From the NCBI RefSeq assembly GCF_017348835.2, contig NZ_CP071375.1: 64,000 nt of DNA. One strand, given 5' to 3'. Below the pieces are notes generated by a model, which had not been told where the DNA came from, did not search any database, and saw only the letters and a program-made list of their open reading frames with translations. This stretch comes from Escherichia coli (GTDB lineage Bacteria; Pseudomonadota; Gammaproteobacteria; Enterobacterales; Enterobacteriaceae). Every line of letters begins with the position of its first letter. Position 1 is the stretch's first letter. Below are positions 5,951 to 59,989 of this stretch, piece after piece. Both the position numbers and the translations under genes were made by a program.

Positions 5951-6186
5951 TGGCTTCACTTATTCAGGTACGTGATTTGCTGGCGTTACGGGGCCGTATG
6001 GAAGCGGCCCAGATAAGCCAGACATTGAACACTCCACAGCCAATGATTAACGCCATGCTGCAACAGCTGGAAAGCATGGGCAAAGCCGTGCGGATTCAGG
6101 AAGAACCTGACGGCTGCCTCTCTGGCAGTTGTAAAAGCTGCCCGGAAGGCAAAGCCTGTCTGCGCGAGTGGTGGGCGCTGCGTTAA
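5950..6186 (+). CDS. feoC: FeoC, small Fe-S dependent regulator
   Basis: Trimmed to [15 protein letters not shown]...; 78 aa; Cys cluster [15 protein letters not shown]; start overlaps feoB stop. Confidence 0.85.
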
Positions 6187-6210
6187 CCATACTCCATCGC
6201 CTGTTTTGAA

Positions 6211-6244
6211 AAGCCCGGTATGCGTTTGCATCCGGGCTTTTTTG
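6211..6244 (+). terminator. Rho-independent terminator after feoC
   Basis: aagcccgg-(12 nt loop)-tccgggctt followed by a T-run. Confidence 0.7.
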
Positions 6245-6388
6245 CGTGCGGCTTTCCATAAAAATGCAATTCTTGCAGCGCGACGTAAGTTCCTCTGAAA
6301 GCGTCTCGCAGGGATGAAAACTGGCTAATGCACAGGTGTGGAGTGGCGCGTAGAGTCGCGGCATTCAAACAACAGGTGAAGGAACGCC

Positions 6389-7267
6389 ATGAGCAAAAAG
6401 CAGAGTTCCACCCCACACGATGCGCTGTTCAAACTCTTTTTACGCCAACCGGACACGGCACGCGATTTTCTTGCGTTTCATTTACCGGCACCCATTCACG
6501 CGCTCTGTGATATGAAAACCCTCAAGCTGGAGTCGAGCAGCTTTATTGATGACGATCTGCGTGAAAGCTATTCCGACGTGCTGTGGTCGGTGAAAACGGA
6601 ACAAGGACCAGGATACATCTATTGTCTGATTGAACATCAAAGCACCTCAAACAAACTGATCGCATTTCGCATGATGCGCTACGCCATTGCCGCAATGCAA
6701 AACCACCTGGATGCCGGACACAAAACGTTGCCGATGGTAGTGCCATTGTTGTTTTATCACGGTATTGAAAGCTCCTATCCCTATTCGCTGTGTTGGCTGG
6801 ATTGTTTCGCCGATCCCAACCTGGCAAGGCAGCTTTATGCCTCTGCATTTCCGCTGATTGATGTCACCGTCATGCCTGATGATGAAATCATGCAGCACCG
6901 ACGCATGGCGCTGCTGGAGTTAATTCAAAAACATATTCGTCAACGCGACCTGATGGGGCTGGTAGAGCAAATGGCCTGCTTATTAAGTAGTGGATACGCT
7001 AATGACAGACAAATCAAAGGGCTGTTTAATTACATCTTGCAAACCGGCGATGCGGTACGTTTTAACGATTTTATCGACGGCGTTGCCGAACGTTCACCGA
7101 AACACAAGGAGAGTTTAATGACTATTGCGGAAAGATTGCGGCAGGAGGGGTTTCAGAAAGGTATACGTGCTATTGCCAAAACCATGCTGGATGCCGGAGT
7201 CCCTCTTGAGGACGTTCTGCGATTTACCGGGCTGTCAGAGGAAGAATTGGCTGCGGCGAACCAGTAG
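6389..7267 (+). CDS. rpnA: Rpn-family recombination-promoting nuclease / transposase-like protein (YhgA)
   Basis: 292-aa ORF at the expected position after feoC; matches recollection of YhgA. Confidence 0.8.
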
Positions 7268-7283
7268 ACACTATCCCCTGCTT

Positions 7284-7329
7284 AAGTGCTACTTTATGCT
7301 ATCTTGCATGTAACACAAAGTAGCACTTA
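7284..7329. promoter_or_regulatory. 13-bp perfect inverted repeat (taagtgctacttt / aaagtagcactta); candidate operator for the downstream toxin-antitoxin pair, or yhgA terminator
   Basis: Arms at 7284-7296 and 7317-7329 separated by 20 bp; sits 10 bp upstream of the antitoxin start codon. Confidence 0.45.
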
Positions 7330-7338
7330 GGAACTGAT

Positions 7339-7608
7339 ATGCAGACAGTGAAATTACGGCAACAAGGAGGAGCCATGATCGTTACTATCCCACGAGATCT
7401 TGCCACCGATCTTGGCTAGTCACCGGGCACAGAGCTTACCGTGGAGAAAAAGGGCGATAGCGTTAATTTACGCGCAACCGGGCACAAACCGCGTGGGCGT
7501 CTTACCGTCGCGCAGTTGTTGAGCCAGATCGATGAAAGCGAAATTACGCAGCTAAATCAGTCCACAGAAGGATGGGCTGAAGGGAAAAAAGGTAATGAAG
7601 CATGGTAA
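7339..7608 (+). pseudogene. PemI/MazE/ChpS-like (AbrB/SpoVT fold) antitoxin interrupted by an in-frame TAG at 7417-7419
   Basis: Hand translation MQTVKLRQQGGAMIVTIPRDLATDLG*SPGTELTVEKKGDSVNLRATGHKPRGRLTVAQLLSQIDESEITQLNQSTEGWAEGKKGNEAW; SD agga upstream of ATG 7339; 3' end overlaps toxin start by 7 nt. Confidence 0.7.
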
Positions 7609-7970
7609 AGGCACGGACGCCACATCGTGGTGAGATCTGGTATTTTAACCCTGATCCGGTTGCCGGGCATGAACTTCGGGGTCCACATCATTGCATTGTG
7701 GTAACGGACAAAAAACTCAACAATGTTTTAAAAGTTGCTATGTGCTGCCCGATTACAACAGAGGCAAATGCAGCACGTTCCACAGGGGTGACGGTGAACG
7801 TCCTCCCCCATGATACGCAAACCGGTAACCTGCATGGCGTTGTGCTCTGTCACCAGCTAAAAGCTGTCGATCTTATTGCCCGTGGCGCTAAATTTCATAC
7901 CGTTGCCGATGAAGCATTGATTAGTGAGGTGATCGGTAAACTGGTGAATTTAATCGACCCACAACAGTAG
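7602..7970 (+). CDS. PemK/MazF/ChpB-family endoribonuclease toxin
   Basis: 122 aa; RGEIWYFNPDPVAGHELRGPHHCIVV...CCPITT...LHGVVLCHQLKAVDLIAR parallels MazF/ChpBK/PemK; no counterpart at this position in my recollection of K-12. Confidence 0.8.
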   Translation: MVKARTPHRGEIWYFNPDPVAGHELRGPHHCIVVTDKKLNNVLKVAMCCPITTEANAARSTGVTVNVLPHDTQTGNLHGVVLCHQLKAVDLIARGAKFHTVADEALISEVIGKLVNLIDPQQ

Positions 7971-7984
7971 CCCTGACTTATCAC

Positions 7985-9476
<1,492 letters not shown>

Positions 9477-21538: not shown

Positions 21539-22766
21539 TTATCCTTTTACGCACACCACCTGACGTAGGGTGTAGATAACTTCCACCAGATCGCTTTGTG
21601 CCGCCATCACCGCATCAATATCTTTATACGCCATCGGGATTTCGTCGATCACTTCGGCATCTTTACGGCATTCCACATGCGCGGTGGCACGAATTTGGTC
21701 TTCCACGCTGAACAGTTTTTTCGCTTTAGTTCGGCTCATTACCCGCCCGGCACCGTGGCTGCACGAACAGAACGACTCTTCATTTCCCAGTCCACGAACG
21801 ATAAAGCTTTTTGCCCCCATCGAACCGGGAATAATTCCATATTGACCAGCACGCGCAGACACCGCGCCTTTACGCGTCACGTAGATCTCTTCACCAAAGT
21901 GCTGTTCTTTTTGCACATAGTTGTGGTGACAGTTGATCTCTTCCATCGCCAGCGTTTGTGGCTGTCTGACCGTTTTCTGCGTAATGCTCTGCAACGCCGT
22001 TACCACGTTTTCCATCATCGCATCGCGGTTAAGGCTGGCGAAAAGCTGCGCCCAGGCCACGGCTCTTAGGTAATCATCAAAGTATTCCGTACCTTCCATA
22101 AAGTACGCCAGATCACGCGACGGCAACGTCTCAAGTTGGTCCTGCATCTCTATTTTGCGCCAGATCGATAAAGTAAGTCCCGATGGCATTACCAATTCCG
22201 CGTGAACCGGAGTGCAGCATAATCCACACCTGGTCCGACTCATCAAGGCAGATTTCAATAAAGTGGTTACCCGTTCCCAGCGTTCCCAGGTGTTTATAGT
22301 TGTTAGTGTTAAGGAAACGCGGATATTTTTGCGTTAACCACTGATAACCGGCTTCCAGCTCAGCCCATTTCGCATCGACGTTAACAGGCGGATTTTCCCA
22401 TGCACCTTTATCACGTTTACAACGTCCGGTAGTACGCCCGTGCGGCACCGCAGTTTCAATCGCCTGACGCAGCTCCGCCAGGTTTTCCGGCAGGTCAGCC
22501 GCCGTTAAAGCGGTACGTAGTGCGTTCATTCCACAGCCAATATCCACGCCCACCGCCGCCGGAATAATCGCCCCTTTGGTCGGGATCACGCTACCAATGG
22601 TGGAACCTTTACCCAGGTGTACATCAGGCATTACCGCAATATGTTTGAAAATAAACGGCATCTTCGCCGTATTAATAAGTTGCTGACGCGCATCGGCTTC
22701 TACCGGCACGCCTTTGGTCCACATTTTTACCGGGGCATTTTCAGTGGTCAGTAATTCGTAATTCAT
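21539..22766 (-). pseudogene. rtcB: RNA ligase RtcB, frameshifted
   Basis: Two overlapping minus-strand ORFs (22131..22766, RtcB N-terminus ending ...IDLAQ then 7 out-of-frame codons; 21539..22258, continuing in another frame from ...IEMQDQLETLPSRDLAYF to ...VVCVKG); frame switch at the T4 run at 22153-22156. Confidence 0.8.
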
Positions 22767-28417: not shown

Positions 28418-29020
28418 TTACCGTAAAGCCCACGCCATCATACCCAACGTAACAAAACTCAGGCACGTTCCCCACTCACTCCACTTCCGTATCTGGCTTC
28501 TATTTTTGCTACGCCACTGGCAATAATATCCCAACGCAAAACCAAGCTGTGCGCTTATTGGACCGATAAAATCCGTCCACGGCTGAGGCCAAAATGGCGA
28601 AAAATTCAGGGGTAGCCAGACAACAAGCAGAAAGAAATTGCGGATACTTTCCAGCAACGCAATTTTCGCTGGCGCGATGTAAAAAATGATATTCCAGAGG
28701 ATCAACCATAAATAGACCGGTGCGAATACCAACCAACAATGGAGCCTGCTTTTCAATTCAGATTGAGTTCTACGAGTAAATTGCCAACCGACACAACATA
28801 TTACACAGAAAAAAAGCGCATATTCAGCCGATAACCAAAGTTGTAATTGCAGAAGTGAAATACGCCTGATCATGAGCGAGATTGAGAACAGCATTTCCCC
28901 CAGAAAACTCAGCGTGATAATACAAGCAGCCAGTGCAACCACCGTCGGCCACACCAACAACGGTACAATAACAAAGCCGAGAAATAACGGATAAATATAA
29001 AGTCTGATTATATTCATCAT
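28418..29020 (-). CDS. Small polytopic membrane protein, function unknown
   Basis: 200 aa, hydrophobic throughout (5-6 predicted TM segments); start overlaps the stop of the upstream gene (TAATG). Confidence 0.6.
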   Translation of the reverse strand: MMNIIRLYIYPLFLGFVIVPLLVWPTVVALAACIITLSFLGEMLFSISLMIRRISLLQLQLWLSAEYALFFCVICCVGWQFTRRTQSELKSRLHCWLVFAPVYLWLILWNIIFYIAPAKIALLESIRNFFLLVVWLPLNFSPFWPQPWTDFIGPISAQLGFALGYYCQWRSKNRSQIRKWSEWGTCLSFVTLGMMAWALR

Positions 29021-30552
29021 TATTGTCCTGATGATTCGGGGGATGCTTCATACAGCGGCACATACCCCACATCCTCTACCAACTGTTGCCCCTGCGGACT
29101 TAAAAACCAGTCAACAAATTTCTGCGTTTCCGGCGTGGCATTTTCACGCGTCACCATAAATGCATCGACGATGTACGCATATTTGCCGTTGCGAATGTTT
29201 TCCGCCGTCGGTGTAATATCGTTAATCGCTAGCAATTTTATATTTTTATCAGCATTCATTTGCGTCGCGTAATAGCGGAAGGTATAGCCTATTGCGTTGT
29301 TTGTATTACGATATTCGGCAACGACTTTAATCATTCCCTCCATTACGCTTGCCACTTCGGTTTCCTGCGGCGAGATCATACGGACATTTTTCATGACCTG
29401 TGATTGCATCACCGTCTGGCTGCCAGAGTCTTCCGGGCGTTGCCAGGTCTGGATCTCCTGATCGTTACCGTCAACAGTACGCCAGTTGGTAATTGCACCA
29501 CTGAAAATGTCACGCACCTGTTGTTCAGTCAGAGAATTAACCGGATTATCCGCATTGACGATGAAAACGAATGCTTCACGGGCAAATGGCGTGTATAGCA
29601 AAGTGACGCCCGATTCCTCTGCGCGTTTTTTCTGCCCACCGGAGGGTTGCGCCACAAAAATAATATCGGCATCACCTTTAACAATCCGGTTATATGCATC
29701 GGGGGTACGAGAGTTCTCCAGATATTCCCAGATGTGGAAATCTTCCGGTATAACGCTCAACGCATAAAAGGCAGAGGCATAAATTGGGTACGCCGCCGTA
29801 GCACCATCGAGTCGCGGCCAGTTTTGCGTAAACTGAATTTGCGGTTTACCACGCAGTGGTGTCAGTTGATTATTGAGTTTATCGGGTCGCCAGGCCCAGG
29901 TATCAATATTTTCACGGACACCGACGCCGGGATTAAGCTGTTTATATAAATAAGCCTGGTAACCGGCGACAAAACCAAGCATGAGAAGGATAAACAAGAG
30001 GGAATTACGGCAACGTAACCCGGACGTGCCCGTTAAAAGATGTCTGGTCGGCCAACCGTACCCCAGCGAAAAACTGATATGCGCGCCAACGGGTATAATG
30101 ACTATCCACCAGTACTCACCACCAACTAATGAGACTAACAAAACACCCAGCCAGGGAAGCATAAGATCAGCCAACCAACCCGATCCCATCTGGCGAAATT
30201 GATAATCTGCCAGATGCAGCGCGATTATCCAGCCAATCAGGGTTAATAGTGCGGGTAAGAGAAAAAAGCATTGTCGCCAGGCGGCTATTTCTCTTTTTTC
30301 TGGTGCACTATCGCCCGCCCATACTCGCCCCGAGAAAAATAGCATTATCGCACCCAGCGCCAACATAAAAATGTTAAGCAGAAGGTAAATTGTTGGCGTG
30401 AAGAGTAAATTGCAAACTTCAAGAATGGCGGCAAGCCCGCCCCCCAGCATAGCAACAACCGCTGCCAAAAATTGCGTCAGTATGGGGAGGCCGAAAAAAG
30501 TCATTACCAGCGAGGACAAAATCCATTTTCTGTTTTGCATTATTCTTTCCAT
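29020..30552 (-). CDS. Polytopic membrane domain fused to a PstS-like (phosphate-binding, PBP type 2) periplasmic domain
   Basis: 510 aa; N-terminal ~200 aa hydrophobic; C-terminal region has PstS-like motifs LDGATAAYPIY, RPEDSGSQTVM, NAIGYTFRYYA, KFVDWFLSPQG; likely the intact form of what K-12 keeps as the yzgL remnant. Confidence 0.65.
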   Translation of the reverse strand: MERIMQNRKWILSSLVMTFFGLPILTQFLAAVVAMLGGGLAAILEVCNLLFTPTIYLLLNIFMLALGAIMLFFSGRVWAGDSAPEKREIAAWRQCFFLLPALLTLIGWIIALHLADYQFRQMGSGWLADLMLPWLGVLLVSLVGGEYWWIVIIPVGAHISFSLGYGWPTRHLLTGTSGLRCRNSLLFILLMLGFVAGYQAYLYKQLNPGVGVRENIDTWAWRPDKLNNQLTPLRGKPQIQFTQNWPRLDGATAAYPIYASAFYALSVIPEDFHIWEYLENSRTPDAYNRIVKGDADIIFVAQPSGGQKKRAEESGVTLLYTPFAREAFVFIVNADNPVNSLTEQQVRDIFSGAITNWRTVDGNDQEIQTWQRPEDSGSQTVMQSQVMKNVRMISPQETEVASVMEGMIKVVAEYRNTNNAIGYTFRYYATQMNADKNIKLLAINDITPTAENIRNGKYAYIVDAFMVTRENATPETQKFVDWFLSPQGQQLVEDVGYVPLYEASPESSGQ

Positions 30553-37853: not shown

Positions 37854-40036
37854 TCTGCCTCCCGAACCAGCCAGATAGTGGCCAGCGGTGGTAGCGTCAG
37901 GCTTAGTGAATGCTGACGACCGTGGCTGGCAATCTCATCGCTGTGTACCGTGCCGCCATTGCCTGCATTACTGCCGTGATAGTGCATGGAATCGGTATTG
38001 AGGATCTCACGCCATTTGCCTGGCTGATTAATGCCGAAGCGATAATCATGACGCGGCACCGGCGTAAAGTTACTGGCAACGATGATTTCGTTACCCTCTT
38101 TATCGCGACGCACAAAGATAAGCACCGAGCGTTCTTTGTCATCCACCACCAGCCATTCAAAGCCGTACGGGTCAAAATCCAGTTCATGCATCGCTTTATG
38201 GTGGCGGTAGGTGAGGTTCAGATCGCGCACCAGACGCTGGACACCGTGGTGCCAGTTATCGCCGCCTTCCAACAGATGCCAGTCGAGGCTGGCGTCATGG
38301 TTCCACTCGCGGCCCTGGGCAAATTCGTTCCCCATGAACAGCAGTTTCTTGCCCGGGAATGCCCACATCCAGCCATAGTAGGCGCGCAGGTTAGCGAATT
38401 TCTGCCATGCGTCGCCCGGCATCCGGTCGAGAATCGATTTTTTACCGTGGACCACTTCATCATGCGACAACGGCAGGACGAAGTTTTCAGTGTAGTTGTA
38501 GAGCATCCCGAAGGTCAGTTTATCGTGATGATACTGACGATAAATCGGGTCGAGTTTCATGTAGTCCAGGGTGTCATGCATCCAGCCGAGGTTCCACTTG
38601 TACCAGAAGCCCAGACCGCCCATATCCTGCGGACGAGAAACGCCAGGGAAATCGGTAGACTCCTCAGCCATTGTCACCGCACCGGAAACCTGCTCACCAA
38701 GAATACGGTTGGTATTACGCAAGAATTCAATCGCTTCAAGATTCTCGCGCCCGCCAAATTCGTTCGGGATCCACTCCCCCTCTTTACGGCTGTAGTCGCG
38801 ATAAATCATTGACGCCACCGCATCGACGCGCAGCGCATCAATACCAAAACGTTCAATCCAGTAAAGCGCGTTACCGACAAGGAAGTTACTGACTTCACGG
38901 CGACCATAGTTGTAGATTAGCGTGTTCCAGTCCTGATGATAGCCTTCACGCGGATCGCTGTGTTCATACAAGTTCGTGCCATCAAATTCGGCAAGCGCAA
39001 AGTCATCAGTCGGGAAGTGGCCTGGCACCCAGTCGAGAATCACGTTCAGACCAGCTGCGTGTGCGGCATCAATGAAATAACGGAAGTCGTCGCGAGTACC
39101 AAAACGGCGGGTCGGTGCATACAGGCCGGTTGGCTGATAACCCCAACTGCCATCGAAGGGATGCTCGTTAATGGGCAGTAGTTCGAGGTGGGTAAAGCCC
39201 ATCCATTTAGCATAAGGCACCAGTTGATCGGCCAGCTCGCGGTAGCTCAACCAGAAATTGTTGTCGGTGTGGCGACGCCAGGAGCCCAGGTGAACTTCAT
39301 AAATAGAGATTGGCGCATCAAACTGATTCGCTTTTTTGCGCTCTTCAGTCTGTACAACCTTTTCCGGCAGCCCGCAAATAAGAGACGCGGTTTCCGGGCG
39401 CATTTGCGCTTCGAAGGCATAAGGGTCGGACTTCAGACGCAAGTTGCCATTGGCATCAATCATCTCGTATTTATAGAGCTGACCGTTATGCGCCCCAGGG
39501 ATAAACAGTTCCCAGATGCCGCTCTCTTTACGCAGACGCATCGGGTGACGGCGACCGTCCCAGTAGTTGAATTGCCCAACCACCGAGACCCGACGGGCGT
39601 TTGGAGCCCAGACAGAGAAACGCGTACCTGTGACGCCATCCATAGTATCTGCATGCGCGCCTAAGGTTTCATACGGGCGCAGGTGAGTACCTTCAGATAA
39701 TAGCCAGGCATCCATTTCCTGGATTAGCGGACCAAAACGGTAAGGATCATCAATCAGGTTTTGCTGACCATGCCAGACAACAGCCAACTGATAGCGGAAA
39801 AAATTCTTACGTCGCGGAATGACGCCGCTAAAGAATCCCCGTGAGTCGAGACACTCCAGTTTTGCGAGTTTGCGCCCGGTTTTCGGTTCAATCACCCACA
39901 CATCGGTAGCGTCGGGTAAAAGGGCACGGACTTCCAGTCCCGCGGTGGTTTTATGCATTCCCAGTACGGAAAAAGGATCCGCAAAATGGCCTGCAATTAG
40001 CGCGTTAATCACGTCTCTATCGATACGATCGGACAT
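37850..40036 (-). CDS. glgB: 1,4-alpha-glucan branching enzyme
   Basis: 728 aa; start overlaps the glgX end. Confidence 0.93.
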
Positions 40037-41603: not shown

Positions 41604-42197
41604 ATGAATGAAATCATTTCTGCAGCAGTTTTATTGATCCTGATTATGGATCCGCTCGGAAACCTACCTATTTTCATGTCCGTACTGAAACATACTGAAC
41701 CGAAAAGACGGCGGGCAATCATGGTGCGAGAGTTGCTTATTGCTCTCCTGGTGATGCTGGTGTTCCTGTTTGCGGGTGAGAAAATTCTGGCATTTCTCAG
41801 CCTGCGAGCAGAAACCGTCTCCATTTCTGGCGGCATCATTCTGTTTCTGATCGCCATTAAGATGATTTTCCCCAGCGCTTCAGGAAATAGCAGCGGGCTT
41901 CCGGCAGGTGAAGAGCCGTTTATCGTGCCGTTGGCAATTCCGTTAGTCGCCGGGCCGACTATTCTCGCCACGCTGATGTTGTTGTCTCATCAGTACCCGA
42001 ATCAGATGGGACATCTGGTGATTGCTCTGCTGCTGGCCTGGGGCGGCACCTTTGTCATTCTGCTACAGTCTTCGCTATTTTTACGTCTGCTGGGCGAGAA
42101 AGGGGTGAACGCACTTGAACGCCTGATGGGATTGATTCTGGTGATGATGGCAACCCAGATGTTCCTCGACGGCATTCGAATGTGGATGAAGGGGTAA
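41604..42197 (+). CDS. yhgN: MarC-family inner membrane protein YhgN
   Basis: 197-aa polytopic membrane protein at the expected position. Confidence 0.85.
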   Translation: MNEIISAAVLLILIMDPLGNLPIFMSVLKHTEPKRRRAIMVRELLIALLVMLVFLFAGEKILAFLSLRAETVSISGGIILFLIAIKMIFPSASGNSSGLPAGEEPFIVPLAIPLVAGPTILATLMLLSHQYPNQMGHLVIALLLAWGGTFVILLQSSLFLRLLGEKGVNALERLMGLILVMMATQMFLDGIRMWMKG

Positions 42198-42202
42198 GGT
42201 TC

Positions 42203-42240
42203 AAACAGGTGCTGCACACAACCAGACGCGGCACCTGTTT
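42203..42240. terminator. Hairpin between convergent yhgN and the DprA-like gene
   Basis: 10-bp arms aaacaggtgc / gcacctgttt with an 18-nt loop, then ttatt. Confidence 0.5.
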
Positions 42241-42242
42241 TA

Positions 42243-43445
42243 TTACCTGAACTGATAATGACCTTCGCCCAATCGGATAACCCTTCCCTCTTCTTCTGCG
42301 CGGTTCAGCCACACACTAATTTGTTCGATGGTTAAACCAGTACAAGACGCCAGCCTTTCAATACTTATCGATTCCTTTGCAAGGATCGCCAGTTCCGCCA
42401 CAAAGAGTTGATAAAAATCGACAGGCGTATACGCGGGCATTACTGCGTAATTTGCGTCATCTTCATGCAGCGAAAACAGTTCTGGTTGAGCGTTACGGAG
42501 TGCTCTGTCATACATCAGCCCAGGAACGTCTGGCAGTCTGATCGTCACATTCTCAGCCTGTTCAGCACTCCATGACGCCCCATTTTCTACTAATCGTGAA
42601 TTGGCTGATTGCATATCCTGATTTGGTTTAACCTGCACAGGCAGCCACTGATGTTTTAATGCCTCCATCGCCCCGGTTATCGTTCCACCGGTCATTCCCG
42701 CACGTACAACCATTGCGCTTTCAGCAAGGCAATAAATATATTTATTTCGCGCCATCGCATTGCCGACGGTGAAACGTACCTCTGGGTAAAACGGCGAAAT
42801 CAACACCAGGTTGCCTGCTATAAGCCCTTCACGCCATTTCACTAACGTACTCGTTTTTAACAAGCTATCAGCTAATACGCCAACGGCAGTTCCCCCGGCC
42901 TCCAGTGCCGACGCCATTGCACATTCATCAATACCTCGCGCACCACCAGAGATAACGCAAATCCCCTGTTGGGCCAGTTTCGCGGCCAGTTGTTGGGTAT
43001 AGCGCAAATCGTCAGTCGGAGCATCTCGCGAGCCAACAATCGCCATACCTTCCGCTTGCAGTAATGCTTTATTCCCGCAGCCAAATAAAACGGGAGGTGC
43101 ATCCGTTCGCAATCGGTTTTTCAAGCGAACGGGATAATCGGCATCTCCGCGGGTTAAGATCCATAAACCGGCGCGTTGCCACTTATCTACCGCCAACGCC
43201 AGACTATGACCGCGCGCCAGCAAGCCAAGAATACGCTCCTGAGAAATACGCGGATCGCTCCAGCCTGTAAGTTTATCTTGCGGTTGCGGCACCAGAAGCT
43301 CGGCGGGACTGATACGTTGGTGCTTCAGCCATAATGCAAACTTCCCCCATTCACTATTACTAAGAGGTTTATACTCACTCGCCGCCGCGCGAGAAAAATC
43401 GCTGGTTAGCAGGAGAGTTGCTTGTGCATTGGCTGAAAGATTCAT
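42243..43445 (-). CDS. DprA/Smf-like (Rossmann/SLOG) protein; candidate antitoxin/partner of the upstream helicase
   Basis: Motif GMAIVGSRDAPTDDLRYTQQLAAKLAQQGICVISGGARGIDECAMASALEAGGTAVGVLADSL is typical of the DprA core; start set at Met overlapping the helicase stop (TGATG); an alternative upstream Met at 43538 would give 431 aa. Confidence 0.75.
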   Translation of the reverse strand: MNLSANAQATLLLTSDFSRAAASEYKPLSNSEWGKFALWLKHQRISPAELLVPQPQDKLTGWSDPRISQERILGLLARGHSLALAVDKWQRAGLWILTRGDADYPVRLKNRLRTDAPPVLFGCGNKALLQAEGMAIVGSRDAPTDDLRYTQQLAAKLAQQGICVISGGARGIDECAMASALEAGGTAVGVLADSLLKTSTLVKWREGLIAGNLVLISPFYPEVRFTVGNAMARNKYIYCLAESAMVVRAGMTGGTITGAMEALKHQWLPVQVKPNQDMQSANSRLVENGASWSAEQAENVTIRLPDVPGLMYDRALRNAQPELFSLHEDDANYAVMPAYTPVDFYQLFVAELAILAKESISIERLASCTGLTIEQISVWLNRAEEEGRVIRLGEGHYQFR

Positions 43446-45541
43446 CAATTTTTTACCGAGGTAGAAGCAAGGGCAAGAGGATAAACCGTCGGGCAACCTG
43501 CCTGGCCTAACAGTGCTGTCAGAACTGTCAGCGTCCATGCAGAATCCACGATATCGTCAACCAGCAACGCCGGACCAGGCATCAAAGGAGGGGTAATCAC
43601 AAACGCCCCGTCGAGATTTTGACACTGGTGGAAACGGTTTTGCTGCATTTTCTGCGGTGGATTGTCCACGACTTTTTCAATGGCATCAATAAAAGGTAAG
43701 CCAAGTTTCGCCGCCAGTCGCCGGGCAAAATCAGGAACCAGGTCGAGGTGCTTTAATGAAGGAACGCAGCATACCCAGGTTGGTTCAGGATGCGGATTCC
43801 AGCGTTGGCGAACCATTTCCGCACATGCCTCCACCAGTTCATCACTGAATCGCCCCGTTTTTTTCTCCTGTGCTACCTGCTTTCCCCACCCGGAATCTCC
43901 CCAACGAGAAAGGATTCGCCCCGTAGATCCTTGTAAACTCGCAGGCAAGTTCCCTTTAAATCCGTATTGCGTAAAAGCCCCAGCTGCCACCTGTTTATTG
44001 AGATTTAATGGCAGGTCAGCGTGTTTAATAAATAAGTTTGCCGCATGGAGTAAGCCGCTATCAATGTCGGGCGACAACAACGGATGCTGAAGACAACTGC
44101 TACATTTACCACAATGTTCGGCACCTGGCTCATCGAGTGCGCGGCGCAGAAATTGCATTTTGCACTCCTTGGTCGTGATATAGCTTTCAACGTCTGCCAG
44201 CTCACTTTTTCTCTGATTCATCAAATGGTTAATTCGTTCATGGTCAGGAGAAAAACTGACAATTGTTCTGCGCCATAATTTCTCGGTATACACCACAGGC
44301 GATGGATTTTCAGCTACCAATAATTTCAGTGCTTTTTCTATTTGCCCGTAACGGAGATTCGTCCGTTGTTCAATGCCTCGTAAGGTAAGACCGTCATTCA
44401 CGCTAAGTACGTTGAGTATTTCATGAATTTGCGCCTCCGCAGGAAAGGCGCTTTCACGGAAGAATTTATGAATAGCACGGTCTTCACTGCCGCAAAGCAG
44501 TATGCCAACAGCAGAATCGATACCGCGACCGGCACGCCCCACCTGTTGGTAGTAACCAACTATCGAACCTGGCATCTGGTAATGAATAACAAACCCCAAA
44601 TCCGGTTTGTCAAAGCCCATTCCCAGCGCCGTTGTCGCAACCAGCACTTTAATTTTATTTGCCAGCAACGCCTGCTCCAGATATTCCCTGGCAGTATTAG
44701 AATCTTCCGCGCCTTCACAAGTCACGCCGCTGTAGTAAGCAAATGCACTGATACCATTTTTCCTTAACCACTCGGCGACAAGTTCGGCATCGCGAGTAGT
44801 CAGGGTATAAACAATTCCCGATTTGGAAAACTGAGGGATAACTGTTGCTAACCATGCCAGACGGGATGACTGTTCACCTAAGACTAAGGCATCAAGCGCC
44901 AAACTTTCGCGAGCCAGCGTTCCACGCTGAATCACAATGTCACCCAATTGCTGACGGATATCCTCAACGACACGGTTATTCGCTGTCGCGGTTGTACCCA
45001 GAACAGGGGTATTCGCAGGTAGTTGGCGCAAAATATCTAATATACGTCGGTAATCCGGGCGAAAATCGTGGCCCCAATCAGAGATGCAGTGCGCCTCGTC
45101 GACCACAAGCAAGCCAATACGATCGGCTATAGGATATAAAACCGTTTCGATAAAGTCCTGGTTTGCCAAACGTTCCGGGGAAACCAGCAAGCAATCGACC
45201 TCACCTTGCAGCAACTTATCGCTAATGCGCTGCCATTCTTCTCTGTTTGTAGAATTCAACGTTTCAGCCGTAATACCTAACCGTTCAGCGGCGGCAACCT
45301 GGTTACGCATCAGGGCAAGCAAAGGAGAGATGATAATTGTCGGGCCAGCGCCGCGATCGCGGAAGATTTTACTGGCGATGAAGTACACAGCACTTTTCCC
45401 CCAGCCAGTGCGTTGGACAACCAGCAGTTTTCGCCGTTGGTTCACCACCGCGTCTATGGCTTCCCATTGCCCTTCCCTGAAAGTAGCGGTGGTATTTCCT
45501 AACATCCGCTGTAAAAGCAATTCAGCTGCGTGCTTTTCCAT
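43445..45541 (-). CDS. RecQ-like SF2 DNA helicase fused to a C-terminal ComF/PRTase-like domain; candidate toxin/effector
   Basis: 698 aa; Walker A TGWGKSAV, DEAH box VVDEAHCISDWGHDFRPDY, motif VI QQVGRAGR, Cys cluster CGKCSSC, C-terminal PRTase motif ALLVDDIVDSAWTL; strong SD aggag upstream of ATG. Confidence 0.8.
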   Translation of the reverse strand: MEKHAAELLLQRMLGNTTATFREGQWEAIDAVVNQRRKLLVVQRTGWGKSAVYFIASKIFRDRGAGPTIIISPLLALMRNQVAAAERLGITAETLNSTNREEWQRISDKLLQGEVDCLLVSPERLANQDFIETVLYPIADRIGLLVVDEAHCISDWGHDFRPDYRRILDILRQLPANTPVLGTTATANNRVVEDIRQQLGDIVIQRGTLARESLALDALVLGEQSSRLAWLATVIPQFSKSGIVYTLTTRDAELVAEWLRKNGISAFAYYSGVTCEGAEDSNTAREYLEQALLANKIKVLVATTALGMGFDKPDLGFVIHYQMPGSIVGYYQQVGRAGRGIDSAVGILLCGSEDRAIHKFFRESAFPAEAQIHEILNVLSVNDGLTLRGIEQRTNLRYGQIEKALKLLVAENPSPVVYTEKLWRRTIVSFSPDHERINHLMNQRKSELADVESYITTKECKMQFLRRALDEPGAEHCGKCSSCLQHPLLSPDIDSGLLHAANLFIKHADLPLNLNKQVAAGAFTQYGFKGNLPASLQGSTGRILSRWGDSGWGKQVAQEKKTGRFSDELVEACAEMVRQRWNPHPEPTWVCCVPSLKHLDLVPDFARRLAAKLGLPFIDAIEKVVDNPPQKMQQNRFHQCQNLDGAFVITPPLMPGPALLVDDIVDSAWTLTVLTALLGQAGCPTVYPLALASTSVKN

Positions 45542-45643
45542 CTTTATCTCCTGCGATCTTTAGGCAGTGATTAGAACGGATTATTTGCAGGTAAATTTGC
45601 GAGAGAGATCAAAAAGATGAAGAGAGGAGAAAAGAGAAATGAA

Positions 45644-45667
45644 TTACTGCGAGCAAGCTCGCAGTAA
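45644..45667 (-). terminator. Hairpin downstream of gntU
   Basis: ttactgcgagc-aa-gctcgcagtaa palindrome followed on the minus strand by a T-rich tract. Confidence 0.5.
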
Positions 45668-45680
45668 TTTGTCGCAGTAA

Positions 45681-47021
45681 TTAACTCAACAGCTGGAACG
45701 CAATCATCCCAACGATGGCACCAACAGTGCCGAGGATGGTTTCCATCATGGTCCAGGTTTTCAGCGTTTCGGCTTCGGTCGCGCCGGTAAATTTACCGAA
45801 CAACCAGAAACCGGCGTCGTTAACGTGGCTGACAACAATCGAACCACCGGCGATACAAATCGACAGCGCCGCCATTTGCGCACCGGAATAGTTCAGTTGT
45901 TCAATGACCGGCATCACCAGCCCCACCGCCGTTAAACAGGCAACGGTGGCAGACCCCTGAATGATGCGCACTGCAGCTGCCAGCACGAAGCAGGTGATAG
46001 CAATCGGCAGGCCCATGCCGGTTAACGCTTCGCCCAGTGCCGGACCTACGCCAGAGTCAACCAGCACCTGTTTGAACACGCCGCCCGCACCAATCACCAG
46101 CAGAATGATCCCCGCCGGTTGCAGCGCGTGACCGCAAATCTCCATCACTTTGTCTTTTGGCATGCCCTGACGCATTGCCAGACCGTAAATCGCCACCAGA
46201 CAAGCAACCAGAATCGCGGTAAACGGATGACCAATAAACTCGAACCATTCGTAAGCGGTAGAGCCTTCCGGCACAAAACGCGCGGCAATGGTTTTCAGCC
46301 CCACCAGCACCAGCGGCAGCAGGATCAGCGACAGGCTGAATCCGAAGGACGGCATTTTGCCTTCGCCGAGATGCGGCTCGCTGATGTCGTCAGGAATATG
46401 CAGCTCAACGTAACGGCTGATGAAGTTACCCCACAGCGGCCCGGCAATAATCATTCCCGGAATTGCCGCACACAGGCCAATCAGGATCATCCAGCCAAAA
46501 TCGGCGTTCATCTGCGATGCCAGCAGCATTGGCGCTGGCCCTGGCACCAGGAACGCCGCCGCTGCCGCCACGCCTGCGAATAATGGGATTACCAGCTTCA
46601 CCAGGTTCGTACCGGTGTGGCGCGCCATTGAAAAAGCAACGCTAATCAGCAGAACAATCGCCACTTCAAAGAACAGCGGTAGCGCACAGACCAGCCCCGC
46701 AAGGCCGATGGCATAATGCGCGCGGCTGTGACCGAAGGATTTGAGCATTTTGACGGCAATCTGATCGACTGCGCCGGTTTCATGTAAGATCTTGCCAAAC
46801 ATAGCTCCCAGGGCGACAACCACCGCCAGGAAGCCGAGGGTGCCTCCCATCCCTTTTTCCATCGTCGCTGCGATTTTATCGAGCGGCATACCGGAAAAAA
46901 GGCCAGCCCCCATGGACACCACCATCAAAGCCAGGAAAGCGTGCATACGCGCCTTCATGACTAAAAACAGCAGCAGTAAAACAGACCCTACTGCTGTTAA
47001 AACAAGCGTTAATGTAGTCAC
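45681..47021 (-). CDS. gntU: Low-affinity gluconate transporter
   Basis: 446 aa GntP-family permease, paralogous to gntT. Confidence 0.92.
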   Translation of the reverse strand: MTTLTLVLTAVGSVLLLLFLVMKARMHAFLALMVVSMGAGLFSGMPLDKIAATMEKGMGGTLGFLAVVVALGAMFGKILHETGAVDQIAVKMLKSFGHSRAHYAIGLAGLVCALPLFFEVAIVLLISVAFSMARHTGTNLVKLVIPLFAGVAAAAAFLVPGPAPMLLASQMNADFGWMILIGLCAAIPGMIIAGPLWGNFISRYVELHIPDDISEPHLGEGKMPSFGFSLSLILLPLVLVGLKTIAARFVPEGSTAYEWFEFIGHPFTAILVACLVAIYGLAMRQGMPKDKVMEICGHALQPAGIILLVIGAGGVFKQVLVDSGVGPALGEALTGMGLPIAITCFVLAAAVRIIQGSATVACLTAVGLVMPVIEQLNYSGAQMAALSICIAGGSIVVSHVNDAGFWLFGKFTGATEAETLKTWTMMETILGTVGAIVGMIAFQLLS

Positions 47022-59242: not shown

Positions 59243-59989
59243 TCATTGCACCACACTCTGCTTCAACCATTCATTGGCGGTCTTAATCCATTCCCGGTGG
59301 TGTTTTCTATAATGAGGTCTTGAGCGTTTAGCCGTATCAACTACAGCAACATACTGCTCGTTGGCTTCACGTAACCGACTCATTTTCGCCAACATTTCCG
59401 CATAGTAAATACGCGCCTGCGGGCCGGGGTAATAAGAAATCAATACTTCAAACTCGCTTTCCGCATCAGCGTATTTTTCTTGTGCGGCTAACGTTCTGGC
59501 AAATAACAAATGCCCGTCTGCCGACTGAAAATCAGGGTTATAACGCATCACATCTTCCAGCGTCTGCTGACAGGCGGCGAACTCCTGAATAGCAAACTGT
59601 GCCTGCGCCAGGCTTAGCATCATTGCCGCTTCATGGGCGAATATCCCGCTTAACGCCTGCTGATAATGGGGAACAGCTTCGTGATAACGCCCCAGGCGCG
59701 CCAGTTCATTAGCCAACGCATAATGGTTTTGATTCGTCTCGGCAATCGCCAGTTCTTCGGTTAATTTGCGCAGGTGGCGCTCAGGGTTGAGTTTGTCCTG
59801 CAGGCGCATCAGCAAAGTATGCCCGTGACGGTCAGCGCCCGTTTCAGGCAGCATCACTATGACGAAATACGCCACGCAGCCAATCACCGGAAAACAGAAA
59901 ATGATAAAAATCCAGTACCGCTCTTGTCCGGTACGGTAAGCGTGAATACAGCAAAGCAGTTCAAGCATGACAACAACGGCATAATGCAT
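59243..59989 (-). CDS. Membrane protein with PLDc_N-like N-terminal hairpin and TPR-like repeats, function unknown
   Basis: 248 aa; N-terminus ...RYWIFIIFCFPVIGCVAYFVIVM...; helical repeat region (ALANELARLGRYHEAVPHYQQAL...); not expected between ugpB and livF from my recollection of K-12. Confidence 0.55.
   Translation of the reverse strand: MHYAVVVMLELLCCIHAYRTGQERYWIFIIFCFPVIGCVAYFVIVMLPETGADRHGHTLLMRLQDKLNPERHLRKLTEELAIAETNQNHYALANELARLGRYHEAVPHYQQALSGIFAHEAAMMLSLAQAQFAIQEFAACQQTLEDVMRYNPDFQSADGHLLFARTLAAQEKYADAESEFEVLISYYPGPQARIYYAEMLAKMSRLREANEQYVAVVDTAKRSRPHYRKHHREWIKTANEWLKQSVVQ

Follow-up and report, generated by a model that had tools for sequence, protein, structure and literature searches.

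The rqlH-rqlI operon at the yhgN-gntU junction

In the 64,000-nucleotide stretch of Escherichia coli DNA analysed here (hereafter the window), yhgN and gntU are separated by 3483 bp, compared to 56 bp in K-12, and the two sequences are unlike over the entire interval bounded by the stop codons of these two genes. The intervening module consists of two minus-strand genes: rqlH (or psyrT; 43445-45541), encoding a 698-aa toxin in which a RecQ-like helicase is fused to a PRTase, and rqlI (or psyrA; 42243-43445), encoding a 400-aa DprA-like antitoxin. The TGA of rqlH and the ATG of rqlI overlap by 1 nt (TGATG). An earlier reading of the window, made from the letters alone (the sequence-only reading), had described this minus-strand pair and stated that its flanking genes are adjacent in K-12, and both statements hold. 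The first ATG in the rqlI frame opens a longer ORF of 431 aa (42243-43538, minus strand), of which the PsyrA model covers residues 32-431; this places the true start at the ATG at 43445 and yields 400 aa, and RqlI is likewise given as residues 1-400 by Russell & Mulvey (PMC4670107). The RefSeq start of this gene lies 31 codons too far upstream.

Both ends of the module carry genuine hairpins, as the sequence-only reading had proposed. At the upstream edge lies the gntU intrinsic terminator (45642-45669, minus strand), a 12-bp stem with a T-rich tail behind it, which folds at -16.6 kcal/mol (z -4.3). At the other end, the convergent yhgN and rqlI genes share a hairpin at their 3' ends (42203-42240, assigned to neither strand) with 13-nt arms that are 92% complementary, folding at -25.1 kcal/mol on the plus strand (z -5.0) and -22.4 kcal/mol on the minus strand (z -3.8), and likely to be a bidirectional terminator. 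The untranslated region upstream of rqlH, a putative promoter region (45542-45641, minus strand), includes a Shine-Dalgarno sequence (AGGAG, 45548-45552) 6 nt before the ATG; this 100-nt leader folds no better than shuffled sequences (z -0.9). There were no matches to the sigma-70 consensus anywhere in 42100-45800, and no Rfam match at E<=0.1.

The module is AT-richer than its surroundings, as had been judged by eye, although the difference is modest in overall GC (0.495, against 0.526 for the window) and clearer in GC3, which is 0.46-0.475 here and 0.56-0.64 in the genes on either side. That the pair was "inserted" here, as the same reading put it, is not established: target-site duplications, terminal (inverted) repeats and an integrase were sought around the 3.48-kb segment and none were found, and in Citrobacter the site is occupied too. 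The sole repeat related to the ends of the segment is 11 nt long and copies part of the terminator arm of gntU. The clone SG127 of Millman et al. begins 11 nt upstream of the gntU hairpin, at the module edge (window position 45680).

Domain architecture and family membership

The N-terminal part of RqlH is an SF2 helicase core (residues ~20-357; 44471-45484, minus strand), matched by Pfam DEAD (4.9e-25) and Helicase_C (9.5e-13), with Walker A (GWGKS, residue 46), DEAH (148) and motif VI (QQVGRAGR, 332). Among solved structures, RecQ-family catalytic cores come closest to it (E ~4e-53 to ~1e-33) and distant DEAD-box helicases score more weakly; RqlH also exceeds the cutoff of the NCBIfam recQ_fam model TIGR00614 (253.8 bits against 219.8). 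A RecQ-type zinc-binding motif follows at residues 443-484 (44090-44215, minus strand; Pfam RecQ_Zn_bind, i-E 0.0031), in which the translation places cysteines at the RecQ-type spacing C460-x16-C477-x2-C480-x2-C483; PF16124 is precomputed for several homologues. Each helicase element named in the sequence-only reading, the zinc cluster included, was thus located. However, Pfam finds neither RQC nor HRDC in RqlH, and a housekeeping RecQ was rejected, given scores of 298 bits against a cutoff of 640 (TIGR01389) and 226 against 1015 (PRK11057).

The C-terminal, toxic part of RqlH is a ComF-like type I PRTase domain (residues ~509-698; 43448-44017, minus strand) that shares with ComF/GntX the layout Q..NR..N.DGAF followed by a hydrophobic-DD PRPP loop. 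This loop, LLVDDIVDSAWT (residues 659-670), contains LLVDDIVDS with D663. In sequence, it resembles PRTases in general only weakly (Pfam Pribosyltran, i-E 0.018; best NCBIfam match GntX/ComF, E 0.017), although PF00156 is precomputed for most RqlH homologues, and because of this weakness a test of the fold was needed. An AlphaFold (AF2) model of the C-terminal 215 aa has a mean pLDDT of 66, with 10-residue blocks of 58-96 over residues ~67-210, and all Foldseek matches listed for it are type I PRTases, ComF and ShosT among them (best E 8.8e-4; ShosT, 8zvc, at rank 23). The modelled C-terminus of RqlH accordingly appears to be a PRTase with a PRPP-binding loop, the ComF-type domain that had been anticipated, and we found no report of biochemical PRTase activity for any PsyrT in the literature searched. 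In the E. coli and Shigella alleles a PRPP-loop glycine is replaced by alanine (Gly668Ala; DSAWT), while 103 of the 120 homologue clusters listed have DSGWT; this alanine could mean that activity is altered in the E. coli clade.

RqlI contains a DprA (DNA_processg_A) Rossmann-like domain (residues ~89-292; 42570-43181, minus strand; Pfam 5.6e-51), in agreement with the expected DprA/Smf-fold protein of about 400 aa, and also matches Pfam LDcluster4 (5e-11). Its nearest solved relatives are DprA and ShosA structures (E 2e-11 to 4e-7); no solved PsyrT or PsyrA was present among the structure matches. A putative helix-turn-helix region at the C-terminus (42246-42428, minus strand) is matched faintly by Pfam HTH_26 (E 0.39), and such a motif has been described in RqlI, where truncations found it dispensable for antitoxin activity (PMC4670107). 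A canonical DprA was rejected (101.7 bits against an equivalog cutoff of 191.15, TIGR00732). While RqlHI shares a RecQ-type helicase core with zinc finger with E. coli RecQ, and a Rossmann-like domain with DprA/Smf, it differs from housekeeping RecQ, DprA and ComF in joining three activities within a two-gene unit of toxin and antidote, one that 70% of strains lack.

Both proteins match the PADLOC models of the PsyrTA family over nearly their full length: PsyrT against RqlH at E=0 (1063 bits, profile positions 5-687 of 689) and PsyrA against RqlI at 3.8e-202 (669.7 bits, positions 1-397 of 398). PsyrTA as catalogued in PADLOC and DefenseFinder (Millman et al. 2022) has the same toxin-to-antitoxin gene order and the same domains as the pair described here; in the verified system of Bacillus sp. 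FJAT-29814 the toxin is 53% identical over the first ~400 residues and the antitoxin 32%, and RqlI is 98% identical to PsyrA of E. coli STEC 1299.

The sequence-only reading had offered PsyrTA/RqlHI or a ShosTA-like system, and only the former stands. ShosTA (E. coli KTE181; PMC11961720, PMC12961424) likewise pairs a PRTase-fold toxin that needs PRPP binding with a DprA-like antitoxin, and shares with RqlHI a phenotype of DNA damage and filamentation. However, ShosT is a stand-alone PRTase, whereas RqlH has a 350-residue helicase core, and ShosTA membership was rejected; ShosT models match neither full-length RqlH nor its isolated C-terminal domain, even at E<=1. The ShosA model does match RqlI (3.2e-27), yet with 93.6 bits against 669.7 for PsyrA; the DprA fold is shared and the subfamily differs. 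Moreover, no binding is involved when ShosA neutralises ShosT (type IV), whereas RqlH and RqlI co-immunoprecipitate. In the Millman table ShosA is given first and its IMG gene number is the lower of the two, suggesting a gene order opposite to that of RqlHI.

We are consequently highly confident that this locus is a chromosomal rqlH-rqlI operon of the PsyrTA family (P. syringae; DefenseFinder/PADLOC), to which the toxin-release mechanism proposed below would apply. The name PsyrTA comes from the P. syringae toxin-antitoxin pair of Sberro et al. 2013. The module is already known, as the rqlHI pair described in E. coli and as PsyrTA in catalogues of phage defence, and since some 30% of E. coli genomes have it at the same site, the finding is correct but ordinary.

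Distribution and ancestry

Among 5426 complete E. coli genomes the yhgN-gntU site is either occupied or empty: 1650 carry the module, always on the chromosome and never on plasmids, and 3774 have the K-12-type 56-bp junction. The comparison with other E. coli genomes that the sequence-only reading had proposed thus shows that these are not universal core genes. In the ExPEC strain CFT073 the pair occupies the same site in the same gene arrangement, with RqlH 97% and RqlI 99% identical (19 and 4 differing residues, respectively). Nucleotide divergence from the CFT073 rqlH is patchy, with three blocks of ~200 nt at ~15%, and the rqlH leader (45542-45641) forms one of the three patches where divergence is high.

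A diverged pair with the same gene arrangement lies at the same site in Citrobacter freundii, its two proteins 73% and 63% identical in amino acid sequence to those of E. coli, compared to 90-97% for the flanks. A simple recent insertion is not supported, as the Citrobacter site is occupied too, and ancestral presence followed by loss is as likely as gain at this site. The divergence of the pair, twice that of its flanks, may reflect either shared ancestry or allele replacement. Further afield, an Alcaligenes genome holds a 66%-identical pair within a type I R-M operon (hsdM-hsdS-psyrT-psyrA-hsdR), on a short island with a phage-type integrase gene ~8 kb upstream, and copies from Alcaligenes, Proteus and Pseudomonas are identical over the C-terminal 215 residues compared. 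The R-M context, the identical copies across genera, the high divergence and the atypical GC3 lend support to a role of the family in genetic conflict.

Carriage by phages and plasmids was assessed with the PsyrT-specific C-terminal half. By tblastn, none of 50,697 phage records gave a match; across 72,556 plasmids there were only 12, all distant, of which the best lies on an E. coli plasmid (53% identity). With a single fixed chromosomal site, no hallmarks of mobility and no phage match, the E. coli module is unlike a typical mobile defence island.

Proposed toxin release, phage defence and competing explanations

The rqlHI pair of ExPEC F11 was characterised by Russell & Mulvey (2015, PLoS Pathog, PMC4670107) as toxin-antitoxin-like, with PRTase-dependent genotoxicity. 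The two genes are co-transcribed. On its own, RqlH induces the SOS response, is mutagenic, and makes cells filament and stop growing; in the E. coli orthologue this toxicity is abolished by D663A and by deletion of residues 509-690. RqlI binds RqlH in co-immunoprecipitation and suppresses the toxicity through the N-terminal and DprA-like region of RqlI. The F11 operon comes from the same species and has the same architecture and numbering (PRTase 509-690, DIVD663, RqlI 1-400), and differences from it are allelic only, as measured on the CFT073 copy.

The mechanism we propose for RqlHI is modelled on the related ShosTA, in which ShosT binds PRPP and disrupts purine metabolism (PMC11961720, PMC12961424). 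In resting cells the RqlH-RqlI complex would be inert, and a disturbance of DNA or protein homeostasis would free the PRTase. Such a disturbance could arise when the antitoxin is lost, or when the helicase or DprA-like subunit encounters phage ssDNA or replication intermediates. Once free, the PRTase may use up or transfer PRPP, harm DNA replication and arrest the infected cell (abortive infection).

Whether the E. coli pair acts against phages is a separate matter. Millman et al. (2022) list PsyrTA (alias RqlHI) as a defence system, and report that a psyrA deletion was not obtainable. In their Table S2 the Bacillus sp. FJAT-29814 system (SG128) is marked "v" for observed defence, whereas the entry for SG127, a clone of this same locus from E. 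coli STEC 1299, reads "observed defense: x"; SG127 is 3485 bp long and has 3 mismatches to the window within its first ~150 nt. For the PsyrTA of E. coli NILS69, a native-host study found no detectable change in phage protection on its deletion, and no detectable protection, only a growth defect, when it was expressed in MG1655. The anti-phage function put forward in the sequence-only reading is therefore retained for the family, and for the present allele by homology, where it remains a prediction: phage protection has been observed with the Bacillus homologue alone, and the E. coli allele at this locus has shown none.

These negative tests, two in number and independent, count in favour of a different and possible, though doubtful, explanation, namely that the E. 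coli module is a vertically kept TA-like or fitness module, engaged in control of DNA stress and in gut/host colonisation, and that the defence label belongs only to distant homologues. The fixed chromosomal site in 1650 genomes, never plasmid-borne and likewise occupied in Citrobacter, conserved expression between strains and the lineage-specific Gly-to-Ala change in the PRPP loop are all consistent with such a role. However, the phage panels were small, the Bacillus homologue (53% identical over the first ~400 residues) protects, other alleles sit in R-M operons, and patchy presence across phylogroups is typical of defence genes. Moreover, the in vivo phenotypes of rqlI mutants are due to unrestrained RqlH and are gone when rqlH is also deleted (PMC4670107), and so show toxicity and not a positive function. 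A further proposal, which we regard as unlikely, is that the RecQ-like helicase brings the PRTase to DNA and that bases are phosphoribosylated directly, in a DarT-like manner and not by draining nucleotide pools, in which case the fixed-site Gly668Ala allele of Escherichia might be attenuated or domesticated for a non-phage role; modification of DNA by RqlH was raised as speculation by Russell & Mulvey (PMC4670107).

It is very improbable that the pair is a DNA-repair or recombination accessory, a RecQ paralogue with a DprA-like RecA loader acting on ssDNA gaps, whose toxicity is an artefact of overexpression. Membership of the RecQ family (TIGR00614 above cutoff), the DprA-fold partner, the binding of RecA and ssDNA by ShosA and the bona fide 3'-5' helicase activity reported for M. 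smegmatis RqlH (PMC3378886) would fit this. Yet even when nothing is overexpressed, a native strain deleted for rqlI shows rqlH-dependent SOS induction and growth defects, and toxicity maps to the PRTase domain and not to the helicase (PMC4670107). RqlHI is, furthermore, missing from 70% of E. coli genomes, RqlH has no RQC or HRDC and scores 298 bits against the RecQ equivalog cutoff of 640, and the rescue data of Russell & Mulvey already suggest that the rqlHI double deletion would have neither DNA-damage sensitivity nor a recombination phenotype. The module is almost certainly not a fragment of a system for 7-deazaguanine DNA modification (Dpd), even though many PADLOC DpdF models match RqlH (E 5e-93 and weaker) and NCBIfam DpdF gives 150 bits: the latter is far under its cutoff of 550, and the PsyrT score is more than three times that of the best DpdF model and covers the full length. 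Some short models in the PADLOC DpdF set match the RqlH PRTase tail alone (PDLC02869, 74 positions), which suggests that this set contains PsyrT-like sequences. Gene content refutes the Dpd interpretation, as other dpd genes are absent and the neighbours of the module are yhgN and gntU.

At this locus, the RefSeq labels ("RecQ family ATP-dependent DNA helicase" and "DNA-processing protein DprA" only) are better read as rqlH/psyrT and rqlI/psyrA. Although it is no discovery, an E. coli allele that is called a defence system by homology and has proved negative in direct tests provides a useful caution for the counting of defence systems.

The module between yhgN and gntU and its published counterpart

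The two-gene module between yhgN and gntU is the E. coli operon published as rqlHI, and is therefore already known: it is catalogued by PADLOC and DefenseFinder, and was dissected experimentally in E. coli in 2015. In the window, 3483 bases separate the stop codon of yhgN (42197) from that of gntU (45681), with hairpins on both sides that are significantly stable on folding, whereas the corresponding spacing in K-12 is 56 bp; the two sequences differ over the entire interval separating the stop codons. The extra segment noticed in the sequence-only reading is thus borne out, as are its two coupled minus-strand genes. The upstream gene of the pair, rqlH (psyrT, 43445-45541, minus strand), encodes 698 amino acids. 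From its first ATG, rqlI (psyrA) would span 42243-43538 (minus strand, 431 aa), yet the PsyrA profile alignment begins only at residue 32 of this ORF, so that the real start is taken to be the ATG at 43445, giving 400 aa and sharing one base with the helicase TGA (AAT TGATG AAT). RefSeq/PGAP places the start of the DprA-like gene of CFT073 and PE164 at the ATG corresponding to 43538 (431 aa, a 94-nt overlap with rqlH). As 43445 is favoured by the PsyrA alignment, by the 400-aa length published for RqlI and by the TGATG junction alike, this public annotation is probably wrong. The segment is also AT-richer, as had been judged by eye, though slightly (GC 0.495 versus 0.526 for the whole window), and the contrast is clearer at GC3 (0.46-0.475, versus 0.56-0.64 in flanking genes).

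The helicase motifs anticipated in RqlH could all be located by translation: Walker A (GWGKS) at residue 46, DEAH at 148, motif VI (QQVGRAGR) at 332 and a cysteine cluster with RecQ spacing (C460-x16-C477-x2-C480-x2-C483), while a PRPP-type loop, LLVDDIVDSAWT, occupies residues 659-670. Both proteins give full-length matches to PADLOC profiles (PsyrT, E=0, 1063 bits; PsyrA, 3.8e-202, 670 bits), which settles the earlier choice between PsyrTA/RqlHI and ShosTA in favour of the former, as ShosT profiles do not match RqlH. Within NCBIfam, RqlH scores 253.8 bits for the RecQ family, whose cutoff is 219.8, but falls short of the 640-bit cutoff for RecQ itself (298 bits). DpdF is rejected, its PADLOC matches being many but far weaker and its NCBIfam score 150 bits against a cutoff of 550; RqlI likewise does not reach the DprA equivalog cutoff (101.7 against 191). 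Pfam finds DEAD, Helicase_C, a marginal RecQ_Zn_bind and a faint Pribosyltran in the toxin, and a strong DNA_processg_A in the antitoxin, in line with the DprA-fold partner proposed. With so weak a generic signal for the PRTase, we tested the fold of the toxin C-terminus, modelling the last 215 residues with AlphaFold from an input of 13 homologues (mean pLDDT 66; 10-residue blocks of 58-96 over residues ~67-210). All Foldseek matches listed for this model against the PDB are type I PRTases, including HGXPRT, APRT, PurF, Helicobacter pylori ComF and, at rank 23, ShosT, upholding the ComF-type domain first suggested; PF00156 is also precomputed on most RqlH homologues. The PDB copy searched holds no PsyrT or PsyrA structure, and of 34 papers found to mention PsyrTA, not one names it in the title.

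The same two genes lie between yhgN and gntU in the ExPEC strain CFT073 (97% protein identity for RqlH, 99% for RqlI), and the residue numbering used by Russell & Mulvey (PLoS Pathog 2015, PMC4670107) for the rqlHI operon of ExPEC F11 fits the window proteins exactly (PRTase domain 509-690, DIVD663, RqlI 1-400). According to that study, rqlH and rqlI are co-transcribed, RqlH without RqlI leads to SOS induction, filamentation and mutagenesis, toxicity disappears if the PRTase is deleted or D663A introduced, RqlI rescues via its N-terminal plus DprA-like region, the two proteins co-immunoprecipitate, and gut persistence requires RqlI. The defence systems listed by Millman et al. (2022) include PsyrTA, with RqlHI as its alternative name; PsyrTA is named after the P. 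syringae toxin-antitoxin pair of Sberro et al. (2013).

Distribution and history of the site

Among 5426 complete E. coli genomes, the 3.48-kb segment is present in 1650 (about 30%; median one copy), including O157:H7, O55:H7 and CFT073, and never on plasmids in this survey. A K-12-type junction occurs in 3774 genomes, which with the occupied sites accounts for the 5424 genomes matching the probe for the junction; in effect, then, a genome has this site either filled or empty. Enrichment in phylogroup E2 has been published, as has conservation of genomic context and expression between strains.

That the module was inserted, as the sequence-only reading had it, is not established, since we found no direct or inverted repeats bracketing the segment, and the same place is occupied in Citrobacter freundii (gntR-gntK-gntU-rqlH-rqlI-yhgN-asd-glgB; pair at 6001-9302 of loci L004/L005) by a diverged pair. 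The E. coli and C. freundii proteins share 73% and 63% amino-acid identity (~69% nucleotide), as against 90-97% amino-acid and 84-87% nucleotide identity for the flanking genes, making rqlH-rqlI about twice as diverged as its neighbours. Both ancestral presence followed by loss in K-12-like lineages and allele replacement via flanking homology are compatible with these data. Relative to CFT073, nucleotide identity is 99.0% for rqlI and 94.7% for rqlH, the lower value being due to three ~200-nt blocks of ~15%, mostly synonymous, divergence (44450-44649, 45050-45249 and 45450-45649; 27-31 mismatches each, against a background of 1-3%), one of which covers the rqlH leader/promoter. Such a distribution points to the import of short tracts from a diverged allele by recombination.

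The rqlHI segment of strain PE164 is 100% identical to that of the window. The window rtcB (21539-22766, minus strand) appears split into two ORFs that overlap (21539-22258 and 22131-22766), which agrees with PE164, where rtcB is annotated as a "frameshifted" pseudogene. Two further minus-strand genes lie between glpD and glgP (28418-30552), encoding a phosphate-binding-like protein of the PstS family (510 aa), whose C-terminal half alone matches TIGR02136, at 2.6e-37 and below cutoff, and a hypothetical protein of 200 aa; in K-12 this interval presumably retains only a yzgL pseudogene remnant. Between ugpB and livF (59243-59989, minus strand) is a gene for a 248-aa tetratricopeptide-repeat protein with weak YbgF-like TPR matches. 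PADLOC matched neither the 28418-30552 genes nor this one.

A possible anti-phage role and mechanism

Membership of a listed defence system, as first proposed, stands, but anti-phage defence by the E. coli allele is unproven. In Table S2 of Millman et al., "observed defense" is marked v for the construct SG128 (Bacillus sp. FJAT-29814) and x for SG127 (E. coli STEC 1299). The 3485-bp SG127 insert begins ATTACTGCGACAAATTACTGCGAGCTTGCTCGCAGTAATT..., the gntU terminator end of the window locus, with 3 mismatches over the first ~150 nt, and the PsyrA it encodes shares 98% identity with that of the window; for the protective Bacillus pair, identity to the window proteins is only 53% over the first ~400 residues of the toxin and 32% for the antitoxin. 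Likewise, PsyrTA deletion in E. coli NILS69, or its expression in MG1655, is reported to give no detectable protection, only a growth defect. The PRPP loop of RqlH (DDIVDSAWT) carries alanine at the usual glycine position (A668, 43532-43534); among the best 120 homologue clusters, 103 have DSGWT, 9 have DSAWT (all Escherichia/Shigella) and 8 lack a recognisable motif. This substitution might be related to the negative defence tests, although F11 RqlH is still toxic in a D663-dependent manner (PMC4670107).

In near-identical orthologues, the toxic moiety is the PRTase domain, which needs the PRPP-loop aspartate, and RqlI binds and blocks RqlH (PMC4670107). The complex would represent a poised toxin-antitoxin pair from which an infection-linked cue may free the PRTase. 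The helicase or the DprA-like subunit might encounter ssDNA or replication intermediates, or else the antitoxin might be lost after host shut-off; the freed PRTase would then use PRPP and derail nucleotide or DNA metabolism, stopping the cell. This scheme is modelled on ShosTA, in which the PRPP-binding ShosT disturbs purine metabolism and makes cells filament, and the DprA-like ShosA binds ssDNA and RecA. The analogy is partial, given that ShosT, unlike RqlH, has no helicase, and that ShosA acts without binding ShosT whereas RqlI binds RqlH.

PsyrTA beyond the E. coli chromosome

Outside E. coli, the PsyrTA family resembles a mobile conflict system in its behaviour. On the Alcaligenes chromosome CP088159.1 (locus L006, 4634-14743), a type I restriction-modification operon (hsdM-hsdS-psyrT-psyrA-hsdR) includes a psyrT-psyrA pair of 66% identity and lies within a short island bearing a phage-type integrase gene at its upstream end, about 8 kb from psyrT. 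Over the C-terminal 215 residues compared, the Alcaligenes, Proteus terrae and Pseudomonas sp. copies are identical, which implies that the genes moved between genera recently. Matches to PsyrT are few among plasmids (12 in 72,556), and the phage collection searched has none. One E. coli plasmid, NZ_OX030731.1, carries a second, divergent PsyrT-like gene (38516-39478; 53% identity over the C-terminal 318 residues), so that more than one PsyrTA lineage is accessible to E. coli.
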